Shown here: positions 5,162-25,580 of the stretch, one piece after another
Numbering within the stretch: the stretch's first letter is position 1
Layout of the letters: the number at the start of each line of letters is the position of its first letter
UHGV virus genome: UHGV-0053799
DNA: 32,153 nt
Reading direction: 5' to 3' (one strand)
From: a virus
Program-made: the position numbers and the translations under genes
Notes under the pieces: generated by a model
What the model saw: the letters and a program-made list of their open reading frames with translations, nothing else
Told to the model about the DNA's origin: nothing
Databases searched by the model: none

Positions 5162-6352
5162 TTAATTGCTGTTAACCGAGGTGACCAGATTTGCCAGGTA
5201 TTTATCGGTAATACGCTGGCGCAGGGTCAGGTTTTCGAGAGGAGGCACCGGTGTATAGTCGTAGTCGATATACAGTTTTCCGGCCTTAAGGGTTTCCGCA
5301 TCGTTGGATTCTTCGCTGAACCAGCAGGTCGCATCCACGATATAGCCGTTTGTTTTCAGCTCACGAAATTTGGCATTGATGCCGTCAACGATGTCGCGAA
5401 TCAGCGTTGCGGTGATGGGCTTATCCACCGCCCACATGTGCGCCTCAGCCATCGTGTCGGCCAACACCTGCGCGGTGCGGGTGTAGTTTTCAAAGAGGAA
5501 CAGCGGGTCATCGGAGCAGGTACGGTTACCCCAGAATCGGAAACCGTCGCGGCGAATCAGCGTTGTGACGCCAGACTCGTTAAGCAGGTCAGCATCGGTA
5601 CCGGACTCCTGCAAATCCCAGAATACGGACGCGCTGATGCCGGTAACACCGTTTACCCCGACGTTGGACAGCGTTTTATGCCAGCCCTGCTCCTGGTCGA
5701 TTTTGGCACGCAGACCCAGCGCACGGGCGGTGGCATACGCGGTGGCGGTGGTACTGTTGACTGTATCCCATGCGAGGAAATCCGGCCAGATGACCATCAG
5801 CTCACGCTGGCTGAAATTCTGGCGGTAGGCTTTCACCTCGGAAATGGTTTTACAGCCCCATGCGCTGATATACCCGAAAGCGCGCAGCTTCTGACAGACT
5901 GATGCCAGTGCAACAGCCACCTCTTTGGTATCCAGCCCCGGCACACCAAGAATACGCGGTTTAACACCGGTTACCGACTCCGCCGCCAGCAGGGCTTTCA
6001 GTCCGGTGTACTGACCGTTTTCGTCGGTGGTGCCGATGATATTGGAAACGGTCTGCGCGAGTTTCGTTTCTTCGTCATCGCCGGTGCCGTCTTCCACGCG
6101 CACGACAACGGTGACCGGTTTTGACTGGTCGGCGATGGCCTGCAACGATGCCGCCAGCGTGCCTTTTTTACCGGCCTTTGCAATTGCGCTCTGCACATTG
6201 GTAATCAGCACAGGTTTATTGAGGGGGAAGGTTTCCGCATCCGCATCGCTGGCCGTGCAGACCATGCCGACAATGGCCGTGGATACGGTGGAAATGACGC
6301 GGGTGCCGTCGTTAATCTCCAGCACCTGCACGCCGTGATGATAGTCACTCAT
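5162..6352 (-). CDS. FI: Contractile tail sheath protein FI
   Basis: 396-aa ORF (MSDYHHGVQVLEINDGTRV...), GGAG RBS 8 nt upstream of ATG; first gene of the F operon. Confidence 0.9.
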   Translation of the reverse strand: MSDYHHGVQVLEINDGTRVISTVSTAIVGMVCTASDADAETFPLNKPVLITNVQSAIAKAGKKGTLAASLQAIADQSKPVTVVVRVEDGTGDDEETKLAQTVSNIIGTTDENGQYTGLKALLAAESVTGVKPRILGVPGLDTKEVAVALASVCQKLRAFGYISAWGCKTISEVKAYRQNFSQRELMVIWPDFLAWDTVNSTTATAYATARALGLRAKIDQEQGWHKTLSNVGVNGVTGISASVFWDLQESGTDADLLNESGVTTLIRRDGFRFWGNRTCSDDPLFLFENYTRTAQVLADTMAEAHMWAVDKPITATLIRDIVDGINAKFRELKTNGYIVDATCWFSEESNDAETLKAGKLYIDYDYTPVPPLENLTLRQRITDKYLANLVTSVNSN

Positions 6353-6440
6353 CCGTTTAACTCCGTGGTTAATGGGTGCAACTATTTTCCGTTGGGCAGA
6401 GCATGAGACGCTATTTGACCTGGCTGGTCAGTGGATGAAA

Positions 6441-6475
6441 CAACAGATAAAGAAAAGGCGGGCAATTCACCCGCC
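6441..6475 (-). terminator. Rho-independent terminator (minus strand)
   Basis: Stem GGCGGG (6457-6462) / CCCGCC (6470-6475), 7-nt loop, followed on the minus strand by TTTTCTTTATCTG. Confidence 0.6.
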
Positions 6476-6785
6476 AGTCCTGATTTGTACTCACTCATTT
6501 TCCGACTGACAATTTACTTAGCCCAAAAGCTATCAAATCTGACAGTCTGCTTTGAGCGAGGAGCGGACATTGCTAACAGCGTTTTATGTGAATTAACAGG
6601 GAGTAGGTCAACGTAGCGCTAGTGGAGTGTATTCTGGCTTAAAGTGTGGAGCAGTTGTCAGATTCAATGCTCATTGCAAAAAATTGTGTTCTAAAGAGGG
6701 CTGTTATATGTTATAGGTTGTTAAGTACCATCGGTGTAAAATACACTTAGAAGTGTCAAACAAGATCGTTCAAAAGGAAGACAAA

Positions 6786-7043
6786 ATGAATAACCAGCAG
6801 TTTAGGGATTTTTTGCGCAAAAATGCACATATTGTGGATTCCAATTGGAATCCAACAGATGCACAGCTAGATGAAATCAGAGCAGCAATACAGAGAGAAC
6901 TAGATCTAGGTAATAAGATAAACTATAGCTGCCTTCAACATATCATTATTCGCATTACTGGCACTACTAGGGTAATGATATTTGATAGCGTTGATAATAG
7001 TGATTTAAACATGCTATTAACTGCAGCAACAAAAAAGAGTTAA
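6786..7043 (+). CDS. Hypothetical small protein (cargo, first gene of a two-gene cassette)
   Basis: ATG at 6786 preceded by AAGGAAG (6774-6780); 85 aa, no TM segment; AT-rich; the track ORF from 6753 begins with GTG and lacks an RBS. Confidence 0.55.
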   Translation: MNNQQFRDFLRKNAHIVDSNWNPTDAQLDEIRAAIQRELDLGNKINYSCLQHIIIRITGTTRVMIFDSVDNSDLNMLLTAATKKS

Positions 7044-7046
7044 TAA

Positions 7047-7748
7047 ATGGAAAATTTGGAAGAAAAGCTTTCTGCGAAGAAAGCTTTGTTTATTTCATCT
7101 GTAAGAAAATTTCTCTCGTCTAAAAACAGAGATAATTTCATAGATTGCATGATCAATGGTACCGCCTATTTCAATGAGGCAGAAAAAATGGTGGGTAATA
7201 GTAAGCTACAAGGTAAGCACAACGATGGTTTATGGGTAACTGACTTAGCCGAGTCTTGTGAGGCAATACTTGACTCTTATCTTCTGCATATTGAATTTAT
7301 CAAGTCACACCATGAAGACATGATGGGTGAAAGTTATAAGAAACCAAACCTGCATGCCCTTTCCAGTATGCAAAGAATGGTGAAGATGTATTGTCAGAAA
7401 GAATCATCCAGTCACCTGAGAGAAAGATTCTTAAAAGCTAACTTACCAACAAAGGGTTTTGACGTGGCTCACAGAGACGATATTGATACTGCAAATAAAT
7501 ATATAACATTAGGTATTGGGTCAGTATTAGTTATAATGTCATTTGCTTTTGCAATGTTCATGGATAATCCTTCGTATTTTAAAATCTTTATAATAAGATC
7601 AACTTTTGCTGTTGGCTGTGCAGCCTTGGCCTCATTTGTTCCTGGATGGATAAACGTTAACGTAAAAGGGTATGTAAAAGCAGGAGGAGCCATTGCTATT
7701 ATTTTAATATTTTATTTCTTTAACCCCCCTGCAATGCTGATTGGCTAA
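7047..7748 (+). CDS. Hypothetical membrane protein: soluble N-terminal domain (~155 aa) + C-terminal 2-3 TM helices (cargo)
   Basis: 233-aa ORF starting 3 nt after the upstream stop; hydrophobic stretches YITLGIGSVLVIMSFAFAMF, FAVGCAALASFVPGWI, AGGAIAIILIFYFF; a 60-nt sample has 28% G+C. Confidence 0.6.
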   Translation: MENLEEKLSAKKALFISSVRKFLSSKNRDNFIDCMINGTAYFNEAEKMVGNSKLQGKHNDGLWVTDLAESCEAILDSYLLHIEFIKSHHEDMMGESYKKPNLHALSSMQRMVKMYCQKESSSHLRERFLKANLPTKGFDVAHRDDIDTANKYITLGIGSVLVIMSFAFAMFMDNPSYFKIFIIRSTFAVGCAALASFVPGWINVNVKGYVKAGGAIAIILIFYFFNPPAMLIG

Positions 7749-7790
7749 ATTCCCTCCTAAATATGTTCTCCTGCTTATTCCTAATTCAAT

Positions 7791-7832
7791 CCATGGAGAA
7801 TTTAAATTCTGCCCTCCACCTCCATGGTTTTT
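7791..7832 (+). terminator. Putative intrinsic terminator of the cargo cassette
   Basis: CCATGGAG (7791-7798) / CTCCATGG (7820-7827) followed by TTTTT (7828-7832); the 21-nt loop makes it atypical. Confidence 0.35.
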
Positions 7833-8227
7833 CGTCCCCCTGTAAAATTGAATTTTTGAAGTATGTATTTTTCTGAGAAAATTAAAAAATCCAGCTCAAC
7901 TGAAATTGTACATCATCTATTTGGATATAGTTTTTGTTATACCAAAATATTCCTTTTCATCGCGAGGTAAAGATAACTGCAAATTGTAAGCACTAGAACG
8001 TTCATAGCAGACTTCCAACCACTGCTCGCTCTCAGTCCAGCCTTGATGGATCGCGCAATATGCCCACTTGCGTCTTTTCGAACGATGCGCAGTTGCGGCC
8101 CAATGCATACCAAGGGCTTGTGACGAGCGTTAACGTTCAAACGTCTGCTCTTGGCACAGAGCGAACTGTCAGATTAGTTTTTACTCTGTGCCATAGATGT
8201 ATAAACTCACATCAGAGCTTATACAAT

Positions 8228-8755
8228 TTATTGCGGTATTTCCGGCCATTCAGGATTTGCAGGATCCACACGACTGACCAGAACGCTGTAGCGTTCCCAT
8301 GCTTCCAGTCGGCTACGCTCCTCATCTGTTGCCATGTTCAGTCTGACCGCGCGCTCCAGCGGCAAAATCACGGATTCAGCATCTGCAAGAAGTCTGGCTT
8401 TCCGAATTTCTGCCTGCTGCTGCAATTCCTCTGCCGTATAAATGCGTTTAGTCACTGTGCCGTCCTTAAACATCCAGTTCCCTGAAATGTCCGCCCGTCG
8501 GTTAGCAGTAATATCCGGCACTTCAACAACACTTAATCCATCCGGTCTGATAGCTGTCACATCCTTTTCCACATAGCGGATGATATTATCTTTGTCGTAC
8601 GCTATTTTTATCGTGTCATCAGCAAAATACTTTTGTTCTTCGTACCAGTTCTTACCATCTTCTGTAAAAAACCAGACAACATCAAACTCCTTTGTCAATT
8701 GATATTGTTCAACCGTTTTTGGATTACCTGCCGTTATATTTATCAAATGCTGCAT
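8228..8755 (-). CDS. G: Tail fiber assembly protein G
   Basis: 175-aa ORF immediately downstream of H; N-terminus [19 protein letters not shown] resembles P2 gpG. Confidence 0.85.
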
Positions 8756-8758
8756 AAA

Positions 8759-10969
8759 TTATACCTGCGCCACGTTGTACCATGTCCCGTTAATGTATTT
8801 CTGAACCGGTCTGTAATATACGCCACCAATGTTATCGGCAGAGTTTGAGCCTGTATCCTGAACAATAATGCCGGTATATACGCACCCGGACGGTGCCTGA
8901 TGTGTCCATGTCATGCCATTGTTCGCAGGTTTGTATGTGGCCGCACCACCAAGCCGGAGATCCCTGACATAGCGGGAGTCAAAATTGCTGAAATTTGATG
9001 GTATCACCTGCCCGGTAACCCGTAGTGCATCAGACTTAAGCGTCATCAGGTCTTTTGTTGTGCTGCCAGACCTGATGCGCCATTTAAAATATTCATTGCC
9101 ATTATCACCAGTTTCAAACCACATGTATGAGTCAGAATCAGCATCTGAATCATTTTTAAATCCAATTTTCGCCCAGTCAGTGTTTCTTTCCCAAATCAGG
9201 AAGGCATCATTGATAAATTTTATGCTGCCTGACATGCTTCCGCCTGATAATGCCAGAGCAAGAATATCCGCAGGTGTTGGCTTTCGTGATGTGGTATAAA
9301 ACTCTGACCAGTCAGCCTCAAATCCATACCCATCACGTGCCGACCTGTAAAAAATCCCCCTGTTTTTATAATCCACAAGAAACTGCATTGCCGGACAACT
9401 TCCCTCACCCGTGTAAAAATGCAGCACCATTTTTGATGCTCCGCCATCCTGTGCACAATAAGCACCACTATCCCAGTTCCATCCTACCGCTTTATTATTT
9501 GCAACCGTATTTCCTGTTTTCCCTAATGCAAAAGCCGGTTGCTTATTTTTCGTATTGTAGTCGCGTCGCCAGCCCGGCGCATAATCAGCTCCGTGATTGA
9601 TATACGTGAATTGCGCACTGGTGGTACCACCACCGCTTGATGTACTCGGAGTGGTCACACGAATGGTCATTGCAGCTTTAACGCCCATAACCTCAATCAC
9701 GCAACCTGCAAGATGAATCGTCCCACAGTCAGTATCGGTAATAATTTTGTTATTACCGTATGACCAGGAACACTTGCACATCCAGTAGGGATGATTAAAG
9801 GCTCCCTGAGACTCCAGCCAGTCAATAAACTGCGCGGTTGTCCAGTTTCCGGCTTCAGTGCTCAAAGCACCGCTATAAGCACGACAGGCACCGATATTTT
9901 TCGTGAAGGTATCCTTTCCCGGAATATCCGCACCGTTCTGATCTTTCTGAAGACGTTTTTCAGCATTGTCATAGGCAGACTTCACCGCTTTTGGTGTTGC
10001 AGCCAGCGTTTCAGAATCGCTGTTGATGGCACTATTGAGCTGAACAAGACCTTTCCGCGCCGTGGTGGCGTCCTGTGCAGTGTATTTCCCGTTAGCAAGG
10101 TCATACGCTGTCTTAACCGCCTTTGGCGTTGCCGCAAGCGTTTCAGAATCGCTGTTGGTGGCGCTACTGAGCTGGACAAGACCTTTTCGCGCGGTGGTGG
10201 CGTCCTGTGCAGTGTATTTCCCGTTAGCAAGGTCATATGCTGCCTTTACCGCTTTTGGTGTTGCGGCGAGCGTTTCAGACGTGCTGTTGGTGGCACTACT
10301 GAGCTGGACAAGCCCTTTTCGCGCTGTGGTGGCATCCTGCGCAGTATATTTCCCGTTAGCAAGGTCATACGCGGCCTTTACCGCTTTCGGCGTTGCGGCC
10401 AGTGTTTCAGACGTGCTGTTGGTCGCACTGCTTAACTGAGTAAAACCTTTGGCGGTCAGCGAGGCGTCCGGGTGACGTCGTGACTGTTCATGTTCTGCAA
10501 TTTTGTCATCAACGTAATCCTGCGTTGCCATCACCGTTGTGGTGTCAATGGTCAGCTCCACTGAGGCTACACTGCTGACTATGATGACCATGCGGCAGGT
10601 CTGCGAACGCCCTGAGCCTTCGGCAAGGGCTGGCTTATAACTTTCGGCCATGTTCGCCACGGCAATTAGCGTTCCCGCATCATCGTACAGGCCAAGTTCA
10701 CGCATCCAGAAACCGCCCACCTCCGGCGGAATAACCAGCTCTGCGATAATATAATTACTGTTTCGTTTGTCCTGGCTGATTTTGTTCAGCGTATGTCGCC
10801 AGACTTCGTGGATAAGCCCGGTCTGTCCGGCATCCGGGACAGGCAATTTACCACCGCCATCCCCGACGGCCATCGTGGTAATGTTGACCTTCCGCCCTCC
10901 CGGTGCGGTTGCCGCTGCCAGCTTTGCTGCACCGGCAGTGGTGATAACGGTTTTGAATTTTGTGCTCAT
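8759..10969 (-). CDS. H: Tail fiber protein H
   Basis: 736-aa ORF; N-terminus as in P2 gpH; internal 44-aa repeats (SETLAATPKAVK...YDLANGKYTAQDATTARKG), the common phage tail-fibre repeat; distinct C-terminal domain. Confidence 0.9.
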   Translation of the reverse strand: MSTKFKTVITTAGAAKLAAATAPGGRKVNITTMAVGDGGGKLPVPDAGQTGLIHEVWRHTLNKISQDKRNSNYIIAELVIPPEVGGFWMRELGLYDDAGTLIAVANMAESYKPALAEGSGRSQTCRMVIIVSSVASVELTIDTTTVMATQDYVDDKIAEHEQSRRHPDASLTAKGFTQLSSATNSTSETLAATPKAVKAAYDLANGKYTAQDATTARKGLVQLSSATNSTSETLAATPKAVKAAYDLANGKYTAQDATTARKGLVQLSSATNSDSETLAATPKAVKTAYDLANGKYTAQDATTARKGLVQLNSAINSDSETLAATPKAVKSAYDNAEKRLQKDQNGADIPGKDTFTKNIGACRAYSGALSTEAGNWTTAQFIDWLESQGAFNHPYWMCKCSWSYGNNKIITDTDCGTIHLAGCVIEVMGVKAAMTIRVTTPSTSSGGGTTSAQFTYINHGADYAPGWRRDYNTKNKQPAFALGKTGNTVANNKAVGWNWDSGAYCAQDGGASKMVLHFYTGEGSCPAMQFLVDYKNRGIFYRSARDGYGFEADWSEFYTTSRKPTPADILALALSGGSMSGSIKFINDAFLIWERNTDWAKIGFKNDSDADSDSYMWFETGDNGNEYFKWRIRSGSTTKDLMTLKSDALRVTGQVIPSNFSNFDSRYVRDLRLGGAATYKPANNGMTWTHQAPSGCVYTGIIVQDTGSNSADNIGGVYYRPVQKYINGTWYNVAQV
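9955..10450 (-). repeat. 132-bp tandem direct repeats (about 3.7 copies) inside H
   Basis: cgtttcag(a/ac)... recurs at 10007, 10139, 10271 and 10403 (period 132 nt); in-frame, encoding the 44-aa fibre repeat. Confidence 0.85.
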
Positions 10970-13395: not shown

Positions 13396-13478
13396 GCGTG
13401 TGAGATTGCACAATATATAAAAGTTATGCTATCTGGATTCATTTGTAGAACGACCATACAACATTCGAGGAGAGCGTA

Positions 13479-14264
13479 ATGTTCAGTGATAATGTGACTA
13501 ATGCGTGGTGGTTTATCTCTTTGTATCTATTTTTATTAATAGCATTAACATTTGTTACCTTTGGTAAAAGTAATCTTATGAGGTTTATTGCACATCATTT
13601 CAATCTTGAGTATTCAGACAGAAAGTTAAAAATGCTCGACAAAAAATGGCGCGACATTCAACTATTTAAAATAATTAACGGAATCAATGTATCAAGCATC
13701 GAAGATGTGAGAATGATACAGCAGGGGCTGATTGATGGAAAACTAAAAACATCGTATTTTTTCCTTACTCGCTTCTGGGGTGACATAACAAAACCACCAC
13801 ACATAATTAAAACAACAATTGTAATTCTGGCCAGTATTATTTATATTCTCTTCGCATGTTATATACACAATGAACAATCCGCTATAGTAAGGGATGCCAT
13901 AGGTATACCATATAAAAATATGATGTACTATGTTTATAGTGACAAAGTTCTTTTATCCTTCAAAAATAAAACGGTTGAATTTAATAAAACTTATAGCCTT
14001 GCCGATTGCAAGAGTCTGCAAAACGTATTTATAAAAGACACACTTCCCGAGATCGCCTGCAATAAGCTCTTACAGCTAAACAAGGAGGACTCCGAATGGT
14101 TAAGTCAGGAGATTAAAGATAATAACAGCCACAGAAAAACATTATTAATAATATCCCTAACCTATTTCATTTCAGGTCTGCTTATATTCCTGTCATATAC
14201 AAAATTCCTTTACACCAATAAGAAGGTTTTAGAATACAAAGCATCAAATAAAAACCACTCATAA
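13479..14264 (+). CDS. Hypothetical membrane protein, 3 predicted TM helices (cargo at the orf30 position)
   Basis: 261-aa opposite-strand ORF with GAGGAG RBS (13466-13471); hydrophobic segments WWFISLYLFLLIALTFVTF, IIKTTIVILASIIYILFACYI, TLLIISLTYFISGLLIFLSY; a 60-nt sample has 28% G+C. Confidence 0.6.
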   Translation: MFSDNVTNAWWFISLYLFLLIALTFVTFGKSNLMRFIAHHFNLEYSDRKLKMLDKKWRDIQLFKIINGINVSSIEDVRMIQQGLIDGKLKTSYFFLTRFWGDITKPPHIIKTTIVILASIIYILFACYIHNEQSAIVRDAIGIPYKNMMYYVYSDKVLLSFKNKTVEFNKTYSLADCKSLQNVFIKDTLPEIACNKLLQLNKEDSEWLSQEIKDNNSHRKTLLIISLTYFISGLLIFLSYTKFLYTNKKVLEYKASNKNHS

Positions 14265-14274
14265 ACCTCTAAAT

Positions 14275-14301
14275 ATTGAGCGACCAGCACGGCCGCTCAA
14301 T
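14275..14301. terminator. Hairpin between convergent genes (possible bidirectional terminator)
   Basis: ATTGAGCG (14275-14282) / CGCTCAAT (14294-14301), 11-nt loop, between the cargo stop (14264) and the S stop (14336); flanks only moderately T-rich. Confidence 0.4.
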
Positions 14302-14335
14302 GCTTAATTGCGCATCAGCCTCTGCCTGGATAAAA

Positions 14336-14788
14336 CTAACGCTCAAGGTGAGCCAGGATAATCTCTTCAATCATCTGCACATCCTCACCGGTAAAGCCGA
14401 GCAGAGGACGCGCCGGATAATCAATTTTCTTACCGTCTTTCCGGTTTTCTTCCGACAGACCGAACTGATGCACACTGGCGATTTTCGGTGACTTCCCGCC
14501 GTAAAACTCCATTGATGCCTGTTCCGGGCTGGCGCGGATATGCAAAAAACGACTGGTGATAAGTTTCGTAAACATTTTTCGCTTAACACGACCGGTCTTT
14601 TTTCTGGCGCTCTGCTGCTGGCGTGGCGCGTAGGGTGTGCCGTCCGGAGCTTTCTGTGCCATCACCCGACGCTGCTGACTCTGCCGCAGGCGTTTCGCCA
14701 GTTCGGCACTCAGTCGCCGACGCCCTGACGGTGACAGCGATTCAATCAGTCCGGTCAGCCGGTCTTCAAAACGCTTAAACTCATTCAT
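14336..14788 (-). CDS. S: Tail completion protein S
   Basis: 150-aa ORF, same length and position as P2 gpS. Confidence 0.9.
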   Translation of the reverse strand: MNEFKRFEDRLTGLIESLSPSGRRRLSAELAKRLRQSQQRRVMAQKAPDGTPYAPRQQQSARKKTGRVKRKMFTKLITSRFLHIRASPEQASMEFYGGKSPKIASVHQFGLSEENRKDGKKIDYPARPLLGFTGEDVQMIEEIILAHLER

Positions 14789-23703: not shown

Positions 23704-23828
23704 CGCCCGCTTCATGGGGCGGTTTTAATGCAGTTGCATGAGCCCACTATAAGTGCATTAGAACTGGCTGAATGAAGAGACAGCGCTTAATCTAGGAAGA
23801 TGCAATAAAATGCAACGCAATGCACTTC

Positions 23829-24527
23829 TTACAACTTCGTCATTGCTGACTCAAATTCATCATTAAATGGCTTAATTTGAGATGATGTTAGTTTTTTTAC
23901 GAACTTTTTTGTTGTTGTTTGAACTACGATTCTACCTTCACCAAGAGCATTCCCCTGGCATTCTTTTACGAACCATTCTTGAGTTACTGATGTGGTAATA
24001 CTCATTGGGATCACAAGCGTTAATATATCTCCGTAGTCTTCTAAAACATGCGGTAACTTGCCAGAGATAAGCGTCCTGGGGTTTACCAATATATTCATTG
24101 CTTTATTATTAGAAAATTGCAACACAACTGATTGAATATTACTCCTTACTTTTCTTTTGTTTGTTATGGTTATTGATATTGCTGTATCTGTAGTGCTAGG
24201 TAAGTACATTGATGGCATTAACACCATGCTATATCGAATAGCAATTTCTTCTGAATTTTCCTTTAGCGAACGGTGTGCTAACAACAATGATGTCGCAACA
24301 GCAGAAAATGCCCCCACCCCAGAAACCCAAGTACCCAACATGGTCAAAAAAGGTATTGTAATTAATTGGTATTTAGTGTCACCATTCAAACCAACACCAC
24401 TATAACCCACGTAACACCCTATAAAAAAGAATAGACAAGCCGTTATTAAAAAAAATAATAAATGCATAGAACTTATATTTTTAAATTTCAGCAACAAACC
24501 TCTTAAAATATATTTGCATCTCTTCAT
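23829..24527 (-). CDS. Hypothetical membrane protein, 2 N-terminal TM helices + ~130-aa soluble C-terminal domain (cargo)
   Basis: 232-aa ORF; hydrophobic LLFFLITACLFFFIGCYVGY and ITIPFLTMLGTWVSGVGAFSAVATSLLLA; a 60-nt sample has 18% G+C. Confidence 0.55.
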   Translation of the reverse strand: MKRCKYILRGLLLKFKNISSMHLLFFLITACLFFFIGCYVGYSGVGLNGDTKYQLITIPFLTMLGTWVSGVGAFSAVATSLLLAHRSLKENSEEIAIRYSMVLMPSMYLPSTTDTAISITITNKRKVRSNIQSVVLQFSNNKAMNILVNPRTLISGKLPHVLEDYGDILTLVIPMSITTSVTQEWFVKECQGNALGEGRIVVQTTTKKFVKKLTSSQIKPFNDEFESAMTKL

Positions 24528-24625
24528 TTTCTAATCTCACATTAAAATCAGACACCAATTTTTGCTAGTCACTATTTTTATGATTGCCAGCATAAATGCT
24601 GGCATCTTTATCATTCTGGCACAGT

Positions 24626-25357
24626 TCACTCACTTATAATTGATACAACCTCACCTGTTTCTACATTGACACGCGCAGCAATCGTCTGTTTCACCACTCC
24701 GCCATAAGCATTAGTTCCGCGAAACGTGGTTTTCACAATGGCATGCGGGTCTTTATTCAAAATCAGATGATATACCGTTGACACATGTTTATAAGATGAA
24801 TCATCGTTCATATTATCTTTAATTAGTTTTTCCAATGGACGATAAGAACCATCCCAACCACTAAAATTACTCTGAAATGTATCAAGATTGATTTTATTGT
24901 TTAGTGACTTCGGGTCATTTTCATAATCATTAAAGCACCACCCAAGAACATCACCGAGTTTCAACTCATCATCTTTGGTAAATGTATACTCACTCATGCA
25001 GGCATAAAACGCATCTGACGCGGCGGCTGGAACTTCCTTAAAATCAATGTAACTATTCACAATATCGTGTCGTGTTTTCTTTGACTCGTTCCGATATTCC
25101 TTGAGTGTTTTTTCACCATATTCGAATGTTTTTTGGACTTTGTGTTCTGCAACGGTTGATGTTTCAGTTTTAGCAACTGGCTGGCTTTTTTCTGTTGGAT
25201 AGAGTATTGAACCAATTATGCTCAATACAAAACCACCTCCGAGATAAACCGCACTTGCACGTTTGCGGTTTGGCATTCGCACCAGTGATGGCCTGATTAA
25301 CCCGATGAAGAAAGCAACGAAAAAAGCGAGTGATAGAAAAGCGATTATAGTATCCAT
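24626..25357 (-). CDS. Hypothetical membrane-anchored protein, 2 N-terminal TM helices + ~180-aa soluble domain (cargo)
   Basis: Start placed at the in-frame ATG 25357 (MDTIIAFLSLAFF...) because AAGGA lies 6 nt upstream; the track ORF extends to 25399 without an RBS; 243 aa. Confidence 0.55.
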   Translation of the reverse strand: MDTIIAFLSLAFFVAFFIGLIRPSLVRMPNRKRASAVYLGGGFVLSIIGSILYPTEKSQPVAKTETSTVAEHKVQKTFEYGEKTLKEYRNESKKTRHDIVNSYIDFKEVPAAASDAFYACMSEYTFTKDDELKLGDVLGWCFNDYENDPKSLNNKINLDTFQSNFSGWDGSYRPLEKLIKDNMNDDSSYKHVSTVYHLILNKDPHAIVKTTFRGTNAYGGVVKQTIAARVNVETGEVVSIISE

Positions 25358-25580
25358 AGCTATCCTTTTTGCATCATCCACATAAAAAATCGACCTCATG
25401 TTAGCAACAGGATGCTTACTTTTGAATATTTGTAAGTTGTTAGCTCTCCAACCTAACTCTTTTCAACCGTCAAAAACCAGCACCAACGCAGTAAAAATAT
25501 GTCTGTCAACTAACGCCTCGCTTCGCTCGTTGTTCAACCCCGCCAGCCCTGAAAACAAGTTTCACGACTGGCGGCGTTCT

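Follow-up and report, generated by a model that had tools for sequence, protein, structure and literature searches.

The two-gene abortive-infection system RexA/RexB of the lambda prophage pairs a soluble cytoplasmic component with a polytopic inner-membrane effector, RexB, which has four transmembrane (TM) helices and is thought to depolarise the cell. The prophage of P2 carries a different kind of cargo, Fun(Z) (P2p22), a single 527-aa protein encoded between the tail-fibre assembly gene G and the tail sheath gene FI, which according to the P2 annotation blocks growth of phage T5 and confers sensitivity to fluorodeoxyuridine (FUdR). Here we describe a two-gene cassette that occupies this FI-G slot in a P2-like prophage, the virus genome UHGV-0053799, analysed as one stretch of 32,153 nt (the window; all positions refer to it unless stated otherwise). 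On the evidence of sequence and predicted structure, the cassette can be classed as a compact module borne by mobile genetic elements, with a putative membrane effector and two protein families that are not described in the libraries searched. Our reading, to which we give roughly even chances, is that it would be a self-contained mobile conflict module, probably anti-phage, in which one or more small cytoplasmic partners and an N-terminal domain (N-domain) control a membrane effector. What we observed in favour of this reading is the location in the fun slot, the foreign composition and rarity of the cassette, its conservation as a module, the swapping of effectors among relatives, its mobility, its defence-related neighbours, purifying selection on both genes and their coupling.

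With Fun(Z) the cassette shares the slot, the orientation antisense to the tail operons and the character of a non-essential lysogenic-conversion cargo; it differs in comprising two genes, one of which encodes a predicted membrane protein with three TM helices (3TM). Homology to Fun(Z), which had been set beforehand as a refuting test, was not found: BLASTP against NP_046777 returned only short, spurious segments for gene 2 (E = 0.09) and gene 1 (E = 50). Compared by description, lambda RexA/RexB is likewise a two-gene system made up of a soluble component and a proposed membrane effector, whereas the partner in the cassette is smaller (85 aa) and in relatives often duplicated, and three TM helices are joined to a large cytoplasmic domain in place of the four helices of RexB. 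The P2/P4-hotspot systems reported by Rousset et al. (2022), such as the TIR plus TM proteins of AC1 or a hydrolase plus TM combination, are also short and join a sensing or enzymatic component to TM proteins, and the cassette family resembles them in alternating between TM and hydrolase effectors; unlike them, the cassette has no TIR or other enzymatic domain, and it resides in the FI-G and not in the A-Q hotspot. The conflict systems dependent on nucleoside triphosphates described by Kaur et al. 2020, with SLATT 2TM, caspase, FGS and alpha/beta-hydrolase effectors, keep the same domain company as the 3TM module and the N-domain fusions described below, but no NTPase (STAND, MoxR, GTPase) is linked to our gene pair and neither protein matches SLATT or EAD in Pfam. 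An equivalent of the membrane module was not found among the membrane-related passages of that article and of a second paper.

The initial annotation had proposed an AT-rich plus-strand gene pair lying antisense within the tail operons, and the flanking genes agree with this: on the minus strand they are the tail sheath gene (5162-6352), with Phage_sheath domains, and the tail-fibre assembly gene G (8228-8755), with a Caudo_TAP domain, and the cassette lies on the plus strand between them. The G+C content of the gene pair is 35.6%, against 53.6% for the backbone and 51.3% for the full window, which places the pair among the lowest 2.9% of windows of equal size; the lowest 60-nt window reaches 23%. 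The region claimed at first, 6353-8227, turned out to be wider than the foreign DNA. Other P2-like prophages align only to 6353-6571 (some to ~6610) and to 8144-8227, so the variable part of the slot, a foreign insert of 37% G+C, extends from about 6572 to about 8143, and the outer stretches are conserved P2 backbone outside the cassette. On the minus strand, 6353-6571 holds the pF late-promoter region, with the activator site placed by analogy with the P2 annotation, and a strong terminator hairpin, while 8144-8227 is the flank downstream of gene G. Conservation in related prophages was checked as well: the full cassette is present in one of 5,426 complete E. coli genomes (TOK-001, 98.3%), the backbone flanks in ~1,040, and the cassette is therefore not a structural gene of the phage. 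It is also found, 99.3% identical, in one phage record that was deposited twice (phage DC1). These data support the view that a self-contained operon of two genes was acquired horizontally and now occupies the fun slot, a locus that the earlier reading had called a defence hotspot and that Vassallo et al. independently named the second defence-enriched hotspot of P2, where three of their new systems were located.

Both open reading frames (ORFs) have the coordinates first assigned to them, gene 1 at 6786-7043 (plus strand, 85 aa) and gene 2 at 7047-7748 (plus strand, 233 aa), separated by 3 nt. Gene 1 starts at the ATG at 6786, which is preceded by AAGGAAG; the 85-aa form is preferred over a 96-aa form with a GTG start because every homologue begins with MNN. 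Among copies with 82-84% DNA identity, the ratio of non-synonymous to synonymous substitutions (dN/dS) is 0.06-0.27 for gene 1 and 0.10-0.13 for gene 2; both genes are real and under purifying selection. They are translationally coupled, with the 3-nt gap found here and overlaps or gaps of 0-6 nt in relatives. The division into a soluble gene 1 protein and a gene 2 protein with a soluble N-domain and C-terminal TM helices, as predicted originally, held up and became more precise. Gene 1 encodes a predicted soluble four-helix protein without a TM helix in hydrophobicity analysis, whereas gene 2 displays three hydrophobic peaks, centred at about residues 162, 190 and 222, which agree with the three hydrophobic helices that follow a five-helix N-terminal bundle in the AlphaFold model (pLDDT 79). 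On this basis we divide gene 2 into the N-domain (residues ~1-140) and a conserved 3TM module (~148-232). The gene 1 family is marked by the motifs W-x-P-T-x-x-Q-L and, at the C-terminus, G-[VI]-D-N-S-D-L-N-x-L-L-A-L-A. Conserved motifs of the gene 2 N-domain are Y-F-N-x-x-E, A-E-x-C, M-Q-R-M-V and L-P-x-x-G-F; R184, P-G-[FW], A-G-G-A and N-P-P are conserved in the membrane part, and Q109 is also among the conserved residues of gene 2. The idea that gene 1 might be a paralogue of the gene 2 N-domain, acting as a homotypic adaptor, was ruled out by profile alignment (hhalign probability 1.6%).

As the initial annotation had supposed, neither protein is a recognised defence protein. Judged by curated thresholds, Pfam gave no match for gene 1, and the sole hit for gene 2, VgrG3_C, stayed below the cut-off (13.8 versus 27 bits); NCBIfam had no match for either, and neither protein matched SLATT, EAD, holin or toxin-antitoxin (TA) families of the two libraries above threshold. 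No family of the PADLOC-DB v2.0.0 hidden Markov models (HMMs) matched either protein at E ≤ 1, sequence-profile searches of the PDB returned nothing for both, and Foldseek against viral structures yielded nothing at E ≤ 0.001. The relatives behaved in the same way: 62 diverse gene 2 relatives produced only four single-member, chance-level PADLOC hits (E 0.0016-0.007), 21 gene 1 relatives gave only noise in Pfam and NCBIfam, and the precomputed Pfam annotation of distant family members is empty. The PHROG profiles phrog_31842 (gene 1, E = 1.8e-59) and phrog_5814 (gene 2, E = 2e-111) match strongly, and both are families without functional annotation. In the literature, searched by protein accession, slot or similar system, we found no description of the gene pair, and none of the systems newly named by Moura de Sousa et al. 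(2026) resembles it.

The family is large. An exhaustive profile search with gene 2 identified 2,047 representative clusters at E ≤ 1e-3 and 617 at E ≤ 1e-10; a word-indexed search reached just 17 gene 2 and 13 gene 1 clusters from Enterobacterales-type sources, and with a diverse alignment 33 hits, all annotated as 'hypothetical'. Loci for HMM scanning were drawn from the genomes of species representatives and from plasmids, assemblies and viral contigs. Immediately ahead of the gene 2-like gene, 19 of the 23 non-redundant loci have one to three gene 1-like ORFs, in many cases a tandem pair of paralogues that can be assigned to subtypes. The range of hosts begins with Enterobacterales and reaches a metagenome-assembled genome of the Actinomycetes, and also takes in Pseudomonas, Noviherbaspirillum, Alteromonadaceae, Methylococcales, Parazoarcus and Burkholderiaceae.

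The two halves of gene 2 also occur apart. Among the 149 top gene 2 representatives, 114 contain both halves, 14 only the N-domain and 21 only the 3TM module. Some of the N-domain-only proteins are fused, via a single TM helix, to PGAP1/DUF676-like alpha/beta-hydrolases, and one such gene still has tandem gene 1-like ORFs upstream (E = 9.5e-27 and 3e-8). Conversely, the 3TM module without the N-domain is fused to caspase, Roc COR-A/COR-B and FGE-sulfatase domains, and the HMM scan found no gene 1 partner at the locus of the caspase fusion. Since gene 1 partners are kept with the hydrolase version and the caspase fusion goes without them, the conserved core consists of the gene 1 protein(s) and the N-domain, with interchangeable C-terminal parts, and the 3TM unit is a membrane module re-used on its own. 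We infer that the N-domain is cytoplasmic and that the C-termini are extracytoplasmic, because in relatives an odd number of TM helices is followed by hydrolase, DUF3298 or Lcl_C domains. It is conceivable, if somewhat doubtful, that we are looking at the first, phage-borne representative of a large unnamed family of immune modules, in which one or two small proteins with the DNSDL motif and a dedicated cytoplasmic helical domain control interchangeable envelope-targeting effectors, either the conserved 3TM module or a lipase-like hydrolase at the outer face of the membrane, and whose 3TM effector is re-used by caspase and Roc-COR systems. If so, it would represent a new sensor/adaptor pair together with a new membrane effector domain common to several defence systems.

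Two relatives depart from the usual arrangement. Pseudomonas inefficax (locus L021, 3720-7690) carries two complete modules in tandem: in the first, a gene 2-like gene follows as many as three gene 1-like ORFs, and after it come a 365-aa ORF without a Pfam match, a 175-aa gene 1-like ORF and the second gene 2-like gene. On a 6.6-kb plasmid of Acinetobacter ursingii (locus L011, 649-1811), the ORF ahead of a distant gene 2-like gene is not gene 1-like; it encodes a 171-aa protein (…NAKAHVNCHGSTLNIDIENFFPSTS…) that resembles, by eye only, a reverse transcriptase in its N-terminal portion. Adjoining this locus is a GNAT/DUF1778 TA pair.

Cassette versions with 98-100% identity were always found in the P2 FI-G slot, whereas more divergent ones occur in several kinds of element. 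An 84% identical copy resides between the S and V genes of a degraded P2 remnant in Klebsiella, and the DNA shared with the window spans 6619-8225. An independent insertion into the S-V (orf30) slot is doubtful, as the shared DNA includes the G-proximal flank and a plasmid replication-gene remnant described below; from its sequence, the copy is probably a rearranged derivative in a degraded prophage. The remnants in Klebsiella quasipneumoniae and related assemblies lack J through D and carry the cassette co-oriented with the tail genes; a pair of reverse-transcriptase and AAA-ATPase genes (retron-like or abortive-infection-like) is present in their A-Q hotspot. An 82% identical copy shares only 6758-7751, which is exactly both genes, and lies beside an AbiJ-like gene, an O-acetyltransferase and an IS3 element. 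Copies with 46-51% protein identity were located on a Dickeya element with a type IV secretion system (T4SS), directly after the T4SS and coupling-protein genes and with CcdAB, ArdC and a Shango-like SngA as neighbours; on an IncFII plasmid, near ParA/ParG; and on an integrase/relaxase element beside P4 cII and Beta-protein genes. A distant copy on a Pseudomonas plasmid adjoins a Hachiman system disrupted by an insertion sequence. PADLOC applied to 132 neighbouring ORFs (≤5 kb, 18 loci) detected HamA/HamB, pAgo with Aga-REase, PD-Lambda-1, SngA, PDC-S20, PDC-S39 and QatA/PifA-like ATPases.

Mobility across element types would also be expected of a TA or addiction module that stabilises its mobile element, with gene 2 as the membrane toxin, gene 1 as the co-translated antitoxin and any anti-phage effect secondary. 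The layout, in which a short gene is tightly coupled to a longer one downstream of it, on plasmids and prophages, is that of classical type II systems, and the plasmid-type copies lie near partition or TA genes (CcdAB in Dickeya, ParA/ParG on the IncFII plasmid, GNAT/DUF1778 in A. ursingii). The putative toxin, however, would be a polytopic membrane protein, two paralogues of the partner are often found, tandem duplicate 'antitoxins' of two subtypes being unusual, and neither protein shows similarity to TA families in Pfam or NCBIfam. Furthermore, the gene 1 partner stays with the N-domain even in relatives whose effector is a hydrolase of predicted extracytoplasmic location, and the pair is found in defence hotspots and beside defence systems. 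We therefore regard an addiction module as unlikely, bearing in mind that it is compatible with a defensive role, since TA and abortive-infection functions can coexist.

The T4SS-linked Dickeya copy bears on another explanation, namely a superinfection- or entry-exclusion device in which gene 2, as an inner-membrane protein, blocks the entry of phage or conjugative DNA without killing the cell, analogous to Fun(Z) against T5, Sie/Imm or plasmid Eex. A predicted inner-membrane protein that is prophage-borne and placed in the same slot and antisense orientation as fun(Z) fits such a function. On the other hand there is the lack of homology to Fun(Z), the family is widespread on chromosomes far from phage or T4SS genes, and the cytoplasmic partner(s) and effector swaps (lipase-like hydrolase, caspase and Roc-COR contexts) are better explained by a regulated effector than by a passive block, and we consider an exclusion device of this kind very unlikely.

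If the cassette is instead a regulated conflict module, as we favour, its mode of action may be pictured as follows. Expressed from the prophage, it would act as an abortive-infection or exclusion system. Gene 2 would reside in the inner membrane, with the helical N-domain in the cytoplasm and the three-helix module in the membrane; gene 1, a small cytoplasmic protein, would act together with the N-domain, either sensing a trigger or keeping gene 2 inactive. After a trigger such as infection, the membrane module would compromise membrane integrity or energisation. Judging by its architecture, gene 2 may be a membrane-disrupting abortive-infection effector, as the initial annotation had proposed; binding of gene 1 to the N-domain, the trigger, membrane damage and an anti-phage phenotype are steps that we infer. 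Moura de Sousa et al. (2026) report that the main defence loci of 19% of P2 elements hold nothing but unknown genes, and that of eight loci of unknown function picked at random from P4 hotspots, six were protective.

Several points weigh against a defensive role. The same study reports that machine-learning predictors flag only 15-32% of unknown P2 proteins as defence-associated. Rousset et al. (2022) challenged E. coli C lysogens of four new P2-like phages, DC1 included, with eight phages (lambda, T4, P1, 186, CLB_P2, LF82_P8, AL505_P2 and T7), and reported protection only for AC1, though DC1 carries the 99.3% identical cassette; this negative is indirect, being read from silence, as explicit data for DC1 are not given and the limited panel did not include T5. 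Our matches to defence systems among the neighbours were counted without a background control, and the mobile-element context is a confounder. In addition, several distant loci have ordinary neighbours (Cpn60, a TonB receptor, an epimerase, a histidine phosphatase). Finally, the 3TM unit could be a conserved anchor or transducer and not a pore, because in longer relatives the TM helices, odd in number, are followed by extracytoplasmic C-terminal domains.

A further alternative is a non-conflict accessory module, an envelope-stress or signalling pair or a lysogenic-conversion function that hitch-hikes in permissive slots. The many relatives with extracytoplasmic DUF3298, Lcl_C or hydrolase domains resemble transmembrane signalling architectures, some chromosomal neighbours are housekeeping genes, and protection by the DC1 lysogen was not reported. 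Such a role is quite unlikely in our estimate, as the cassette is mobile and patchily distributed, seldom occurs in E. coli and is foreign in its AT-rich composition, adjacency to defence systems recurs, and the domain company of caspase, Roc-COR and lipase-like hydrolase is typical of conflict systems. Should the cassette be defensive, it would be a compact system (<1 kb) built from two protein families that Pfam, NCBIfam, PADLOC and the PDB all lack but that amount to ~2,000 clusters in several bacterial phyla; if not, it is still a widespread mobile membrane module. A conserved 3TM module common to caspase and Roc-COR proteins has also been identified, and the modular evidence leads to testable hypotheses on the coupling between sensing in the cytoplasm and damage to the envelope.

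The spacer DNA around the two genes contains only modest signals. A promoter scan upstream of the pair gave a single consensus match, TTGTCA-18-AAAAAT. The -35 element proposed initially, TTGTGT at 6684, is not conserved in the Klebsiella copy, where TTGTCA (6655-6660) and the -10-like block CTGTTATATG (6702-6712) are both kept, and we list 6655-6712 (plus strand) as the candidate promoter region. The proposed terminator fared in a mixed manner. At 7792-7832 (plus strand), an 8-bp stem with a 21-nt loop precedes UUUUU and forms a weak candidate; the T-run is conserved in the Klebsiella copy, but the hairpin (7792-7827) is modest (fold z = -2.4) and its stem is neither conserved nor compensated there. 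Further downstream, a 63-aa ORF on the minus strand (7917-8108) is a fragment of a small-plasmid replication initiator, with ~67% identity over residues 9-62 in tblastn; across these 54 residues it matches 'replication initiation protein' genes in 1,767 plasmids, and the Klebsiella copy of the cassette has it too. The presence of this truncated plasmid rep gene in the insert implies that the cassette would have entered the phage along with plasmid debris, and suggests capture from a small plasmid. The remnant can be seen as a record of cargo traffic between small plasmids and the P2 fun hotspot.

Together with the weak transcription signals, the truncated rep gene raises the question of whether the whole insert is non-functional cargo, decaying debris of plasmid-to-phage recombination. 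This is strongly disfavoured and in our view extremely improbable: both ORFs are intact in every copy, dN/dS lies between 0.06 and 0.27, motifs are conserved across phyla, and the minimal unit common to the different contexts is exactly both genes (6758-7751).

The conserved flank contains, shortly upstream of the pF region, a strong minus-strand terminator-like hairpin (6475-6457), whose 8-bp stem has six G-C pairs and is followed by a T-run. A terminator scan found no similar minus-strand terminator between G and the cassette, and late V-operon transcripts may for this reason read antisense across the cassette and end at the hairpin at 6457-6475.

The FI-G slot can also be occupied by other genes. 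A single DUF3800-domain protein is encoded there on the same antisense strand in E. coli MS 16-3 (locus L003, 2801-3907) and in phage fiAA91-ss. Elsewhere in the window, a second AT-rich island (13400-14400, 36-43% G+C) contains a 261-aa ORF at 13479-14264 (plus strand) in the classical P2 orf30 slot, flanked by V-like and S-like tail genes; its annotation is 'hypothetical protein', and it is common, being covered to at least 80% in 460 complete E. coli genomes. A third island (23800-25400, 34-38% G+C) lies in the A-Q (old/tin) hotspot and comprises minus-strand ORFs at 23829-24527 and 24626-25399. Its genes are annotated only as hypothetical (three coding sequences in RefSeq), and the full cassette of this island was found in just six complete E. 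coli genomes; located in the best-known P2 hotspot, it is another defence candidate. The tail-fibre gene H (8759-10969, minus strand) contains a tandem array at 9968-10429, in which 3.5 copies of a 132-bp unit with 88% matches give rise to repeated segments of 44 aa.

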